A DNA stretch of 64,000 nt from an uncultured Candidatus Saccharibacteria bacterium (GCA_964549935.1 CAZJVT010000002.1:40993-104992); one strand, 5' to 3'. Shown: positions 1,873 to 35,083, numbered from the stretch's first letter. Numbers and translations are program-made. Notes: generated from the sequence alone by a model not told the origin.

Positions 1873-1986
1873 ATTGGTGCGCGTGAGAAGGATACTTAAT
1901 TTATTATATTCTTGCTGAGAAAGTACAAGTCTCAGACGCTGACTGTCTCTGCTGAATTCATTAACTTTTTATCGTCGGATGCTTAG
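1873..1986 (-). repeat. tRNA-Ile 3'-flanking mini-element.
   Basis: Hairpin-rich ~100 nt followed by a second copy of the tRNA 3' end (TATCCTTCTCACGCGCACCAAT versus GATCCTTCCCACGCGCA). The copy ends in an encoded CCA. Confidence 0.6.
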
Positions 1987-2058
1987 TGCGCGTGGGAAGG
2001 ATCGAACTTCCGGCCTTTTCATTATCAGTGAAATGCTCTACCACTGAGCTACACGCGC
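1987..2058 (-). tRNA. tRNA-Ile (anticodon GAT).
   Basis: 72-nt cloverleaf folded by hand: acceptor GCGCGTG/CACGCGC, anticodon loop CTGATAA, T-loop TTCGATC. Confidence 0.85.
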
Positions 2059-2083
2059 ATGTATTTCATTATCAATGATTCCT

Positions 2084-2117
2084 TGAGCCCTGCCTGCCGG
2101 CAGGCAGGTACACGCGC
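2084..2117 (-). repeat. 5' partial tRNA-Ile copy interrupted by a 20-bp perfect palindrome.
   Basis: Minus strand reads GCGCGTGTA[CCTGCCTGCCGGCAGGCAGG]GCTCA. These are nt 1-9 and 10-14 of the adjacent tRNA, with the palindrome (2089-2108) inserted between them. Confidence 0.7.
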
Positions 2118-2189
2118 AAACGAATGAAACTATTTTAGACTAATTCTCGATTGCGGTCAAACCAAAGAACAGCGAATGTAAAAAATCGT

Positions 2190-2534
2190 TCATTTCTTCG
2201 TACTGCTCGCAGTCGTCGTCGCGATTGTGCCGGTTGCAGCGGGAATACTGGAAGTTGGTATGACAACCGGCTTCGTTGAAGTCACAAATCCGTACGTACT
2301 CAAAACCGTGGTACTCCCGGGGTAGATCTGACGCATCAATGCGTCATATTTCTGAAAGTTAAATGTCTGCTCATTCGCAGCTTTTAAACCTTCTGTGCCA
2401 AACACGATGGTGGCCTTAGCGGTAAGCGACTGGACTAAAAAAACGAGATAGGAAAGCAAACCAAGCGCCAGTACTGCTGCGATGCTTATGTAGACAACTT
2501 CCCGCTTATGATTCCCGACATTTTTAAGTCTCAT
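2190..2534 (-). CDS. Small membrane-anchored hypothetical protein, possibly a PilP-like partner of the upstream gene.
   Basis: ORF with an N-terminal TM helix and a Thr/Ser-rich C-terminus. It lies 1 nt downstream of the PilN/O-like gene. Confidence 0.4.
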   Translation of the reverse strand: MRLKNVGNHKREVVYISIAAVLALGLLSYLVFLVQSLTAKATIVFGTEGLKAANEQTFNFQKYDALMRQIYPGSTTVLSTYGFVTSTKPVVIPTSSIPAATGTIATTTASSTKK

Positions 2535-2535
2535 A

Positions 2536-3063
2536 CTACTTGTTATAAATTACCCCGCTGGTAGTTAAATTATACCGAGAATCTTTTTGATAGCTCAGGG
2601 AAATATTGTCAAAGCGAATAAAATACGGGTCGGCTTCCAGGTGCTGCATAAAGGCGATAATGTCGTCATAAAGCCCCGTCATCGCCAAGGTGAATGCAAT
2701 AGAGCCCGGCTCGCTCGCCGTCGCCGGTATCTCGGTCGTGTAGCCCATCGCAACTTCGAGATTAAAAAGCTTTCCGTCATCCTGGACTTTGTAACGGTAG
2801 CGACTCAACTCATCGCGTGGCGGGATAATATGCTTGAGCCGTTCCAAAAGAGGGATGGCCCGTTTAGCGTCAGTATTACCGCCGGTTACAAGCTCGAGCG
2901 TACGTGTACGAAGCGCCAACTCACCTTTTTGCTGTTGGATCGCGATAACCTCGTTATTTAAATAGATATTAAAGCTAATTAAGCCGGCACTTAAAACAAT
3001 AATTAAGCCTGCTGCAATCGAGAGCTTAGCAATAAGTCTTTTATGAAAAGGCGAAAGCACCAT
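2536..3063 (-). CDS. Type IV pilus assembly protein, PilN/PilO-like.
   Basis: N-terminal TM helix, then a coiled-coil (QQQKGELALRTRTLEL), then an alpha/beta domain. The genome also encodes prepilins. Confidence 0.5.
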   Translation of the reverse strand: MVLSPFHKRLIAKLSIAAGLIIVLSAGLISFNIYLNNEVIAIQQQKGELALRTRTLELVTGGNTDAKRAIPLLERLKHIIPPRDELSRYRYKVQDDGKLFNLEVAMGYTTEIPATASEPGSIAFTLAMTGLYDDIIAFMQHLEADPYFIRFDNISLSYQKDSRYNLTTSGVIYNK

Positions 3064-3092
3064 TTATAAATCTAGTATATCATGATACTGCT

Positions 3093-4124
3093 ATGACCGC
3101 AGAGCAAAAAAGCTACAATGCGCTGGCACTTACCTATCGCGTTTCGTATAAAACGTTACAGAATCTTTGGGACCAACACGGCAGCTGGCAAGCAGCGCTA
3201 GCCGCATCGCACTCTAAAAAAGTTCCGGACGCTGAAAAGGCCGCCGCCGAGCTCGACCGCCTTGGCATTCGTATTATTTTACAAAACGATGACGATTTCC
3301 CGGAGTTGCTACGCGAAATCCCCTGGCCACCGCTTGCCTTATACGTACGCGGGACACTCCCAACCTTTGAAAAACCGGCGGTGGCCATTGTCGGCACCCG
3401 TAAAGCGACGCCGATTGGGCTTACGACTGCAGAGCAGTTCGCACGCGAACTAGCTGGCCGTGGCCTTCCTATTATTAGCGGCCTCGCACTCGGAATGGAC
3501 GCCGCCGCCCACCGTGGCACACTGGAAGCTCGCGGAGTTGCCGTCGCCGTACTTGCTTCAAGTGTCGGCTACATCACACCGCGAACCAACGCCCAGCTCG
3601 GTGAGCAGATTTTAAAAAACGGCGGGGCCATCATCTCCGAGTACCCGCTGGGTACCGAGTCCATCCCGCGGTTATTCCTCGAACGTAATCGTATCGTCAG
3701 CGGACTTTCAAAGGGCGTACTCGTGATTGAAGCGCCTAAGCGCTCCGGCACGCTGGCGACGGCCCGTTTTGCTATCGAACAAAACCGCGACCTCTTTGTC
3801 GTCCCCGGAGCCATTACTAATCCGAACTACGAAGGCTCACACGACCTTATAAAACAAGGTGCACAGCTCGTTACAACCAGCGCGGATATCCTGGCTACGC
3901 TAGGCCTTGAAACCGGAGACGAGTCACTGGCAACGCAACAACTTCCCTTCCTCGATCCGCTACAACAAAAAATTGTTGTCTGTTTGACAGAAAACGGTGA
4001 GCCGATGCATACTGACGCCCTGTGTGAAAAAATCAGCCTGGATGCAAGCGAAATTAATGAAGCACTCGCGTTACTCACCATCGCAAACATTGTGAAAGAG
4101 TCCGGTGGCAGGTACTATATATAG
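3093..4124 (+). CDS. dprA: DNA processing protein DprA (Smf).
   Basis: Rossmann core GTRKATPIGL...ISGLALGMDAAAHRG...IVSGLSKGVLVIEAPKRSGTLATARFAIEQNRDLFVVPG. Confidence 0.9.
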   Translation: MTAEQKSYNALALTYRVSYKTLQNLWDQHGSWQAALAASHSKKVPDAEKAAAELDRLGIRIILQNDDDFPELLREIPWPPLALYVRGTLPTFEKPAVAIVGTRKATPIGLTTAEQFARELAGRGLPIISGLALGMDAAAHRGTLEARGVAVAVLASSVGYITPRTNAQLGEQILKNGGAIISEYPLGTESIPRLFLERNRIVSGLSKGVLVIEAPKRSGTLATARFAIEQNRDLFVVPGAITNPNYEGSHDLIKQGAQLVTTSADILATLGLETGDESLATQQLPFLDPLQQKIVVCLTENGEPMHTDALCEKISLDASEINEALALLTIANIVKESGGRYYI

Positions 4125-34124: not shown

Positions 34125-34183
34125 GTATGCAAGTATACCATCAAATACCCTTATGAGTTGGTCTACTTAAACAATACAGCATG

Positions 34184-34256
34184 AGCCACCTCCCGGACTT
34201 GAACCGGGAACCTTCACTTTACAAAAGTGTTGCTCTGCCAATTGAGCTAAGGTGGC
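34184..34256 (-). tRNA. tRNA-Thr (anticodon TGT).
   Basis: Acceptor GCCACCT/AGGTGGC, anticodon loop TTTGTAA, T-arm CCCGGTTCAAGTCCGGG. Confidence 0.8.
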
Positions 34257-34364
34257 GTGCATCTATTTAACCTTAAATTAAGTCAATTGACAACGTCTGA
34301 AGAAACGGTGGTACTCTAATAATGGATGGGAGGGGTCTTAACGGTCACGAAAGGAGGTGACAAC

Positions 34365-34637
34365 ATGACCATGACCCATCACGACCATCAGATCCGGAAC
34401 CAGCTGCAAAAGCTCATCAAGAGCACTCGCGCTGGGATTCGCGCCGACGGCCTCTCTGAAAAGGACGTCATCGCGTTCTGGATGTACCACCTCGAGAAAT
34501 GTGCGCTCGGTGCGCACGTGCTCGAGATCAACAGGGTGACGACTCGTGAGGACATCACGAGAGTTACCGCCAAAGTTCGCGCCGCGCTCAAGCAGATGCG
34601 CGAGGCCGAACCCACACATAGCGGACGCAGCACTTAG
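34365..34637 (+). CDS. High-GC cassette gene C: hypothetical 90-aa protein.
   Basis: ATG preceded by AAAGGAGGTGACAAC. About 62% GC. It sits between tRNA-Thr(TGT) and tRNA-Tyr and is followed by the GC hairpins CCGCCGGACGTCTCCGGCGG and GTGCCTC..GAGGCAC. Confidence 0.5.
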   Translation: MTMTHHDHQIRNQLQKLIKSTRAGIRADGLSEKDVIAFWMYHLEKCALGAHVLEINRVTTREDITRVTAKVRAALKQMREAEPTHSGRST

Positions 34638-34792
34638 GGAGGAACGCAATGGATCTGCGCCTGCAGTACCGCCGGACGTCTCCGGCGGCTAGTGCCTCAC
34701 TTACCGCGCAAGCGAATGAGCGAGGCACTTCAATTTCACAATTTGAATTTTTCTTATAATACGCTACACTAGTTCGGTATCCAGCTACCTAT

Positions 34793-34876
34793 GGGCAGGT
34801 GGCAGAGCGGTCAATTGCACGTGGCTGTAGACCACGCGACCTTGTGTCTACGGGGGTTCGAATCCCTCCCTGCCCA
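34793..34876 (+). tRNA. tRNA-Tyr (anticodon GTA), long variable arm.
   Basis: Acceptor GGGCAGG/CCTGCCC, anticodon loop CTGTAGA, T-arm GGGGGTTCGAATCCCTC. Confidence 0.85.
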
Positions 34877-34885
34877 CATAAAAAA

Positions 34886-34911
34886 TAAACACCTCGGGGT
34901 GTTATTTTTTT
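34886..34911 (+). terminator. Rho-independent terminator after tRNA-Tyr.
   Basis: AACACCtcggGGTGTT followed by ATTTTTTT. Confidence 0.75.
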
Positions 34912-35083
34912 GTGGGCAGAAGCGCGCTGGATTTGCGCGCGGAGGGATTCGAATCGCCGGAGTTCATTTTTGCAGCAACAAAAATGAATGAGGCGGTGCC
35001 CAGACCTGCCTACCGGCAGGCAGGCCTCGTGCGCGCGGCGGCGCGCACGAGAGTCGAGGGCGAATCCCTCCCTGCCCACCAAT
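34912..35083 (+). repeat. tRNA-Tyr 3'-flanking mini-element (scaffold type A), tRNA-like and ending in CCA.
   Basis: TGGGCAG...GGAGGGATTCGAATC-GCCGGA-hairpin-AGGCGGTGCCCAGACC-[CCTGCCTACCGGCAGGCAGG + GC hairpin]-AGTCGAGGGCGAATCCCTCC-CTGCCCA-CCA. The 5' and 3' ends can pair (7-bp and 11-bp helices), and the 3' end duplicates the tRNA-Tyr 3' end. Confidence 0.65.

Follow-up and report, generated by a model that had tools for sequence, protein, structure and literature searches.

The tRNA genes of a 64-kb stretch of chromosome from an uncultured Candidatus Saccharibacteria bacterium (GCA_964549935.1, CAZJVT010000002.1:40993-104992; hereafter the window, with positions counted from its first nucleotide) are flanked by short structured inserts. 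Among these we recognize a new and conserved family of tRNA-bound elements (type A), a core specific to serine tRNA genes (type B), further inserts unrelated to either, and the remnants of overwritten tRNA genes accompanied by palindromes. We read this assemblage as non-autonomous insertion elements directed at the tRNA T-loop, together with the decaying remnants of overwritten tRNA genes, an account that we hold to be moderately probable as a whole and less so in its details.

Both ARAGORN and Rfam call ten tRNA genes in the window, and seven of the ten (Ile, Leu-CAA, Ser-TGA, Ala, Ser-CGA, Thr-GGT and Tyr) have their own 3′ and/or 5′ end duplicated no more than 250 nt away, always in the same orientation. 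An earlier note on this DNA, which had described seven of nine tRNA genes as flanked by hairpin-rich elements bounded by direct repeats of the tRNA termini, was thus right about the seven and one short in its total. The repeats themselves are real, in that a repeat finder and short-word BLAST both recover them, and a chance control agrees: among 106 tRNAs (those of the window and of every locus fetched), the final 16 nt recur with no more than two mismatches within 500 nt downstream in 11, upstream in none and as reverse complement in none. The terminal repeats are hence confirmed as orientation-specific and beyond chance. The elements are not, as had been supposed, bounded by two extra repeats; the left copy is part of the intact tRNA, and the topology to be read from the repeats (intact tRNA, insert, displaced tRNA end) does resemble the attL/attR arrangement that the note had pointed out.

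The inserts do not form the single family first envisaged. Homology over about 120 nt unites the Leu and Tyr elements as type A (a core of ~130 nt, 71–84% identical between these two copies); the two Ser elements share a core of their own, type B, distinct from type A; and the Ile, Thr and Ala inserts have neither, so that the elements fall into at least three unrelated core types. A full-model search of the 64 kb with a Leu/Tyr-type model returns the Leu and Tyr copies only, which rules out that the Ile, Thr, Ser and Ala inserts are diverged members of type A.

At the Tyr locus (all features on the plus strand), an intact tRNA-Tyr(GTA) (34793–34877) is followed by a bidirectional terminator-like hairpin (34888–34911) and then by the type A element with its conserved three-way-junction core (34912–35060). 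The inverted arm, corresponding to tRNA nt 54–74, comes in two pieces (GTGGGCAG at 34912–34919 and GGAGGGATTCGAA at 34941–34953), with hairpin Pa at 34922–34940, and a 20-nt palindrome is inserted at 35005–35024. The displaced tRNA-Tyr 3′ end, from T-loop C56 onward, occupies 35061–35081 (35061–35079 matching 34859–34877 of the gene at 19/19 positions) and runs on into an encoded CCA, as does the distal Ile copy, although neither the Tyr nor the Ile gene itself encodes one; the encoded CCA noticed earlier at element ends is therefore there. The claim of hairpin richness also holds, the Tyr element folding at −110 kcal/mol (z = −9.3). At the Leu locus, also on the plus strand, the intact tRNA-Leu(CAA) (8318–8401) is followed by its terminator, which is the first copy of a 38-nt exact repeat (8401–8438 = 8558–8595, 38/38), and by a type A element at 8439–8548 (covariance model match 8423–8554, 74 bits) that has the core of the Tyr copy but neither Pa nor the acceptor part of the inverted arm. 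The displaced end (8549–8595) consists of 10 nt of T-loop/T-stem (GAGTCCCTCC) and the second copy of the terminator, with 8 nt of acceptor strand deleted. Type A is thus separated from the tRNA by terminator-like hairpins at both loci, and no promoter-like site was found before it at either.

Type A recurs well outside this chromosome. Species-representative genomes were scanned with a pattern derived from its conserved core, yielding 14 true matches, all in further Patescibacteria metagenome-assembled genomes (Saccharibacteria, Paceibacterota, Microgenomates, Taylorbacteria and others), which shows that the element does recur in other genomes of the candidate phyla radiation (CPR); two matches in Streptomyces are chance hits in GC-rich coding DNA. 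In 12 of the 14 the core lies 100–300 nt 3′ of a same-strand tRNA (Gln, Arg-CCT, Arg-TCG, Ile, Leu-TAG, His, Asn twice, Val, Lys, Met and Glu), while of the remaining two copies one runs into the end of its contig and one stands behind a tRNA-like sequence that the tools leave uncalled. A covariance model built on 13 copies retrieves 17, with one or two copies per genome. From 5′ to 3′, the order is as follows: the tRNA; often a terminator; the reverse complement of the acceptor 3′ strand; the 9-bp hairpin Pa; the reverse complement of the T-stem 3′ strand and T-loop, ending in TTCGAA; CGCCGGAG; a variable hairpin, Pb; GAGGCGGUGCCCAGAC; hairpin Pc; AGUCGAGGGCGA; and finally sequence of the tRNA itself, starting at T-loop C56 and reaching the discriminator or further. 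CCA follows the 3′ arm in a minority of copies (the Tyr copy and that of locus L011). One copy (L006, 5820–6145) lies between tRNA-Ile(GAT) and tRNA-Ala(TGC), the pair that usually occupies the 16S–23S spacer. Another locus, L015, has a second element with a different core (5855–6030, minus strand) between its tRNA-Glu and its type A copy; this element carries an inverted T-loop/T-stem copy, a small hairpin and a 23-nt exact direct copy of the tRNA end, and with the same arms around another core it indicates that the arm architecture is not tied to one core.

The family matches nothing described that we could find. In a search of the window and 16 loci against Rfam 15, only tRNAs reach gathering scores, and the Tyr element has no Rfam match up to E = 10; transfer-messenger RNA (tmRNA), Y RNA, RNase P, small ribozymes, group I and II introns and IS605/IscB scaffolds are all without a match. 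Comparison by eye with the tmRNA tRNA-like domain, RNase P, signal recognition particle RNA, T-box, K-turn and the hepatitis delta virus-like, hammerhead and hairpin ribozymes gave no supporting fold, only chance resemblances (such as GGCGAAU). A literature search likewise found no description of the element family, in keeping with the earlier remark that no described family could be recognized. Nothing similar to type A is present in the collections of viral contigs, phage genomes and plasmids, and a phage or plasmid origin was set aside on that ground.

The type A fold comprises hairpin Pa and a three-way junction (P3/Pb, P4/Pc), and its helices are preserved by compensatory change beyond what the controls produce. 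In the 17-copy alignment, 93% of paired cells are complementary, as compared with 72.5% in shuffles and 35–43% when partners are slid; 23 of 32 pairs are changed on both sides, and none of 500 shuffles reaches the observed values. A copy that was not selected by the pattern (L010, 6177–6295) retains P3 and P4 through double substitutions (CGAC/GUCG for CGCC/GGCG, and AGC/GCU for GAC/GUC). G·U exceeds A·C by 19:2, which identifies the folded strand as the tRNA-sense strand. Loop–loop kissing of Pa (CUGC) with Pb (GCAG) was considered and rejected, since it fits three to four of 11 copies (including GGAA/UUCC in L001) and fails elsewhere.

The arms of the element follow the adjoining tRNA. In a model-anchored read-out, the left arm is the reverse complement of tRNA nt 54–74, rather than a copy of the tRNA 5′ strands: it holds the complement of T60, and in the Tyr copy it places an A opposite the T of the T-stem G·U pair. 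Its T part agrees with the reverse complement of tRNA nt 54–65 at 9–12 of 12 positions in every copy, and its acceptor part is recognizable in about nine of 15. The right-hand direct copy, by comparison, is often diverged or cut (L001, L003, L005, L007, L008, L009, L012 and L015), and in these loci the left arm still fits the intact tRNA; the maintained unit is thus the tRNA 3′ segment, the spacer or terminator, the inverted arm and the core, and the right-hand copy behaves as a displaced and unselected leftover. The close identity of the inverted repeat may stem from selection for the hairpin or from plain template-switch conversion.

We were able to compare the inserts of the window with the corresponding loci of relatives through a ParB-anchored scan of metagenomes, which gave 80 loci with at most 60% ParB identity. 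These relatives conserve both a divergent ParB–tRNA-Leu(CAA) arrangement and a tRNA-Ile about 6.8 kb away, and most of these two tRNAs' counterparts there have no insert; with synteny conserved and inserts absent in most relatives, the Leu and Ile inserts of the window are lineage-specific gains. A filled/empty pair emerged among the relatives themselves. Loci L022 and L023 show 100% identity in both flanks (left, 391 nt; right, 671 nt) and are told apart by the tRNA only, which in L022 is an intact tRNA-Leu. In L023, nt 1–24 of the resident tRNA-Leu are followed by 18 nt, a complete foreign tRNA-Leu(CAA), a further 14 nt and the 20-nt palindrome, after which the resident gene resumes at T-loop A58 and continues through CCA into its flank; the cassette amounts to 138 nt, and resident nt 25–57 (33 nt) are lost. 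The complete tRNA-Leu of L023 is 100% identical to the tRNA of locus L017 from the same metagenome, and both junctions are without homology. This pair, which concerns a cassette without the type A core, shows directly that the intact tRNA is the newcomer and that the flanking pieces are the remnants of the gene that it overwrote.

The same split architecture is found at Ile, Ser-TGA and Ser-CGA of the window and, among the relatives, at L018 (Val), L029–32 (Leu) and L031 (Ile), and wherever the right-hand junction can be read (type A, Ile, Thr and L023) it lies in T-loop positions 55–58. In L018 (6490–6820, minus strand), a second copy of nt 1–45 of tRNA-Val(GAC) and then an insert of ~170 nt with a T-arm-like piece stand ahead of the gene, and an 18-nt copy of its 3′ end lies 12 nt downstream, making it another overwritten tRNA. 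The organism of the window itself offered no strain-level empty sites: its closest ParB relatives are 60% identical, and its own sequence was present only in a single contig at NCBI and in two Logan runs, with 100% identity throughout. The organism is present in runs SRR14271332 and SRR14271336. Nor was an empty site found for the type A copy of L005, as all five other contigs of that locus carry type A (one with a diverged acceptor part of the inverted arm).

The remaining loci of the window can be read in the light of L023. On the minus strand, the intact tRNA-Ile(GAT) (1986–2058) sits between an old 5′ half with a palindrome (2059–2118) and a 92-nt insert (1894–1985) that is followed by the old 3′ end (ATCCTTCTCACGCGCACCA, 1875–1893, 17/19, with the encoded CCA next to it). 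The old 5′ half consists of nt 1–9 (2110–2118, within the copy TACACGCGCA at 2109–2118), the palindrome at position 9/10 (2089–2108), the D-stem GCTCA and a copy of the anticodon arm (2064–2074). The intact tRNA-Ser(TGA) (9400–9485, plus strand) has an old 5′ half upstream and old T-arm and acceptor pieces downstream. The upstream half (nt 1–46, at 9188–9330, plus strand), which is absent from the earlier note, has its D-loop and anticodon loop interrupted by three hairpin inserts (19, 19 and 58 nt), and was aligned by local alignment with low gap-extension cost; the chained alignment scores 69.6, as against 29.3 ± 4.4 in shuffles (maximum 43.9). Between 9202 and 9320 it holds the self-contained hairpins CTCGCC..GGCGAG, CCCGCC..GGCGGG, CCCGC..GCGGG and GATTTGC..GCAAATC, and further tRNA flanks of the window contain hairpins of a similar CCCGC-N3-5-GCGGG form.

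Downstream of this gene, the TGA copy of type B (9486–9644, plus strand) is made up of a T-arm copy (9534–9552, 89%), a GGCAGC..GCTGCC hairpin, a palindrome (9591–9610), a TTTTG..CAAAA hairpin and a copy of the acceptor 3′ strand (9635–9644). At the other serine gene, tRNA-Ser(CGA) (26533–26620, plus strand), a terminator, the homologous type B core and the displaced tRNA end follow in that order (26621–26780, plus strand); the displaced end includes 15 nt of flank (26749–26780 versus 26610–26641, 32 nt, 94%). On its 5′ side, nt 1–6 of the tRNA and 5 nt upstream are copied as CCATTGGAAGC (11 nt, 10/11), which on direct reading abuts a variant of the palindrome (26472–26500 together, plus strand). 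On the minus strand, tRNA-Ala(GGC) (24321–24392) has a 42-nt repeat (24377–24418 versus 24491–24532, 90%; the 5′ 16 nt of the tRNA and 26 nt upstream) around a 72-nt hairpin insert, and tRNA-Thr(GGT) (33570–33643) is followed by a 96-nt insert (33474–33569) and a displaced 3′ end from T-loop C56 onward (33455–33473, 18/19).

The recurring GC palindrome proves to be an independent repeat that is present in one homologous copy and absent from the other: the Tyr copy of type A has it and the Leu copy lacks it, and the same holds for Ser-TGA and Ser-CGA within type B. In the window CCTGCCTRCCGGCAGGCAGG occurs at 2089–2108, 9591–9610 and 35005–35024, with a variant at 26483–26500. The palindrome CCTGCCTGCCGGCAGGCAGG is identical in CPR genomes that share only 48–60% ParB identity (16 matches in 861 kb; in relatives at L018, L023, L029–L034, L066, L069, L070 and L096), and none was found in the 14 type A loci. 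Some of its sites lie exactly at junctions of tRNA fragments, others kilobases from any tRNA, and it may be a repetitive extragenic palindromic (REP)-like repeat, an uptake signal or a protein-binding site.

The genes of the window are those of an ordinary CPR chromosome (DprA, TopA, ParB, FtsK, ABC transporters, pilins, ATP synthase and S2). A Pfam scan of ~58 of the 68 non-overlapping open reading frames (ORFs) of at least 100 aa gave no match to an integrase, a transposase or a reverse transcriptase, consistent with the earlier statement that the window holds no integrase; the inserts themselves are protein-less, so that the judgment that the cargo is too small to encode anything also stands. 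Among 97 ORFs around the 14 type A loci there is no recurrent family beyond housekeeping ones; no recombinase is present among the recurrent families or the top 25 of the 94 families, and no TnpA, TnpB or Rep-type gene was seen in the window or in the 8-kb pieces of other genomes.

The sole nuclease-like gene of the window is an HNH ORF of 138 aa (33708–34124, minus strand) between tRNA-Thr(TGT) and tRNA-Thr(GGT). It was rejected as a linked mover of the IscB kind, being a bare HNH domain (27.7 bits against an IscB cut-off of 175). In L090 the two tRNA-Thr genes are 67 nt apart with no ORF between them; the window gene would thus seem to be a free-standing endonuclease gene that has entered a tRNA cluster. 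Elsewhere in the window, the ATP synthase operon includes ORFs of 382 and 188 aa (42449–43597 and 44512–45078, both minus strand) without significant Pfam or NCBIfam match, one between the beta and gamma genes and the other between gamma and alpha; the 188-aa ORF has a sub-threshold resemblance to PsbP_2 (20.5 bits, cut-off 27). An FtsX-like gene right after the Tyr element is split into overlapping frames (35109–35660 and 35617–36054, plus strand), which may reflect a frameshift or a pseudogene. An 822-aa ORF (16626–19094, plus strand) is weakly similar to coupling proteins of the TraD/VirD4 type and to HerA, which fits the type IV secretion-like machinery reported for Patescibacteria.

In the account that we favor, small DNA insertions would land inside tRNA genes through a break in the T-loop (nt 55–58), to which another one in the D or anticodon region is sometimes added, and would survive because the incoming DNA replaces the displaced piece with either a tRNA 3′ segment or a whole tRNA gene. 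The displaced ends would remain as same-orientation repeats, decay, and be colonized by short GC hairpins, the 20-nt palindrome among them. Type A would be a non-autonomous element mobilized in trans, in the form of one folded strand within which the tRNA 3′ segment that it carries pairs with the inverted copy to give a hairpin imitating the target; a putative trans-acting enzyme would work at GTTCGAA, the near-universal sequence of the T-loop. Whole tRNA-plus-element loci may also spread between genomes by homologous or illegitimate recombination following DNA uptake, and the simplest idea for the rewriting of the arms at a new tRNA would be hairpin-templated copying. A bolder version, which we consider improbable, is that type A is the nucleic-acid component of a programmable system directed at tRNA genes, which with a putative trans-acting nuclease or recombinase as its other component would replace resident tRNA alleles with those borne by cassettes, overwriting essential genes in the manner of a gene drive; a scaffold joined to ~20 nt of tRNA-derived sequence starting right after the invariant GTT(C) could serve this end, and the inverted copy could let the targeting segment be re-templated from the adjoining tRNA.

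Several observations weigh against type A as an insertion element. Its copy number is low, at one or two per genome, unlike the burst typical of miniature elements, and no copy was found in about 680 kb of related ParB loci; viral, phage and plasmid copies are lacking and no candidate enzyme was seen. There is no filled/empty pair for type A itself, so that its mobile unit and boundaries are inferred. The repeats at Leu, L014 and Ser-CGA extend 15–38 nt past the tRNA into locus-specific flank, which fits local duplication better than an imported attachment site. Both arms fit each new tRNA, and how they come to match after the core changes tRNA is unexplained. Finally, core conservation, covariation and the wobble-pair bias would fit a functional RNA equally well.

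Other explanations, not all mutually exclusive, were weighed against this account. It is possible, though doubtful, that no dedicated element exists and that the inserts, mainly those other than type A, are by-products of recombination at tRNA genes, arising by homology-facilitated illegitimate recombination, anchored in conserved tRNA sequence, of DNA acquired from related cells and by local slipped duplication, with hairpin repeats later filling the neutral DNA. The incoming tRNA of L023, identical to that of a co-occurring species and joined without homology at both ends, is of the expected kind, as are the repeats that reach into flanks at 90–100% identity (Ala, Leu, Ser-CGA and L014), the old fragments riddled with unrelated hairpins, and the presence of DprA and pilin genes in the window. 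Random joining would not, however, reproduce the same core and inverted-arm architecture at 12 or more different tRNAs in different phyla, nor is a right-hand break within the same 3–4 nt of the T-loop at type A, Ile, Thr and L023 easily accommodated. Another proposal, which we judge unlikely, sees in type A a gene for a functional small RNA that either mimics a tRNA or acts as antisense partner to the neighboring one. Here the 5′ part would pair either with the tRNA from T-loop to 3′ end or with its own 3′ copy, giving an acceptor/T-arm minihelix with a three-way junction that might be handled by RNase P, the CCA-adding enzyme or a synthetase, or might guide a factor to the tRNA, and the direct repeat would be part of the gene. 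The strong covariation, the strand-specific G·U excess, the conservation of the core across distant Patescibacteria lineages at low copy number, and the very stable closed fold that ends in CCA in the Tyr copy (with CCA also following the 3′ arm of L011) are what such a gene would exhibit. Against it stand a different tRNA neighbor in almost every genome and absence from most relatives, the loss or decay in many copies of the 3′ arm and of the acceptor part of the 5′ arm, a usual place directly behind a terminator without a promoter-like site of its own, the tandem arrangement with another core type in L015, and the restriction of CCA to a minority of copies.

Least probable of all, in our estimation, is an origin of the inserts from prophages or integrative elements that a tyrosine integrase brought into the tRNA genes and that later shed nearly all of their DNA, which is one sense of the earlier suggestion of decayed integrative elements. 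The integrase-like topology with a displaced 3′ end from the T-loop, and the tandem array at one tRNA in L015, are in its favor. For type A, however, decay of this sort is difficult to reconcile with a ~130-nt core kept in 17 independent copies, every one of which has a cargo of no more than about 200 nt and none a larger one; the L023 insert measures 138 nt in a strain-level comparison; 5′-side fragments and whole-tRNA cassettes are not expected of such integrases; and neither integrase remnants nor similar sequences in the viral, phage and plasmid collections came to light.

Should the T-loop insertion account hold, an unannotated, phylum-wide structured element would join the very small non-coding repertoire of Patescibacteria, and could be searched for with a covariance model and by a simple positional rule (immediately 3′ of a tRNA and fused at T-loop 56–58). 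Essential single-copy tRNA genes in reduced genomes would be repeatedly overwritten by incoming copies, providing direct evidence of gene flow between co-occurring CPR species, and the tRNA fragments left behind could confuse annotation and predictors of integration sites. Arms that track the adjoining tRNA would point to a templated retargeting step, which to our knowledge is used by no described mobile element, and identifying the enzyme could open the way to a new DNA-insertion activity, site-specific or programmable, aimed at a sequence that is conserved universally.

The elements can be compared with several known systems. Group I introns have been reported in the tRNAs of Patescibacteria, in the anticodon loop (position 35/36 and the classical sites), where they interrupt the sole gene copy, self-splice and match the group I model (PMC13011429). 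They share with the present elements a phylum and the character of structured, protein-less and sporadic inserts at tRNA genes; the elements described here, by contrast, lie 3′ of intact tRNAs with a T-loop junction, belong to no Rfam family and give no Intron_gpI match.

REP sequences, bacterial interspersed mosaic elements (BIMEs) and miniature inverted-repeat transposable elements (MITEs) are likewise short GC-rich palindromes scattered and nested in non-coding DNA, and the 20-nt palindrome behaves in this way, save that its sequence is identical across genomes with only about 50–60% ParB identity. Type A differs in being low in copy and bound to tRNAs, with inverted arms that are derived from the target and not constant; the constant terminal inverted repeats, fixed-length duplication and many near-identical copies of a MITE are not found, as the arms copy the local tRNA and vary between copies and the repeats range in length from 19 to 48 nt. 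Miniatures of IS200/IS605 and IS91 are similar in lacking terminal inverted repeats of their own, in having structured ends and in using a fixed short insertion motif; IS91 inserts next to GTTC, a sequence contained in the T-loop. A structured scaffold directly followed by about 20 nt of target-derived sequence and a tendency to acquire flanking DNA are further points of likeness. In contrast to type A, all of these create no target repeats and no inverted copy of the target, and type A has no Rfam match to the known scaffolds.

The attC sites of integrons and the attP of the CTX phage used by XerCD offer a parallel for the fold: one strand takes the form of an imperfect hairpin resembling the duplex target, with extrahelical features and with structure conserved above sequence. 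Type A similarly has a strand-specific fold, whose stem is made of the target tRNA segment and its inverted copy with Pa bulging out; it is unlike them in that the target is the tRNA T-loop and the stem sequence differs with each tRNA.

Integrase-type elements at tRNA genes, including cis-mobilizable elements (CIMEs), are alike in inserting inside the tRNA gene and supplying its new 3′ end, in leaving the displaced end as a direct repeat from the T-loop to the tRNA 3′ end, and in accumulating in tandem at one tRNA. The direct repeats of the tRNA 3′ segment around the insert and the intact left-hand tRNA are both present here, whereas neither an integrase gene, in the window or nearby, nor an integrase-bearing parent element is, and the inserts measure 100–200 nt rather than kilobases. 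They differ further in their conserved self-folding core with an inverted copy of the tRNA segment, in events that carry a complete tRNA and leave a 5′ fragment, and in repeats that reach into locus-specific flank; even the 138-nt cassette that separates L023 from its empty counterpart L022 comes with 33 nt of target deleted and a 5′ fragment left in place. We regard the system as a variant of tRNA-targeted insertion rather than a demonstrably new principle, in which the templated arms leave room for something more unusual.

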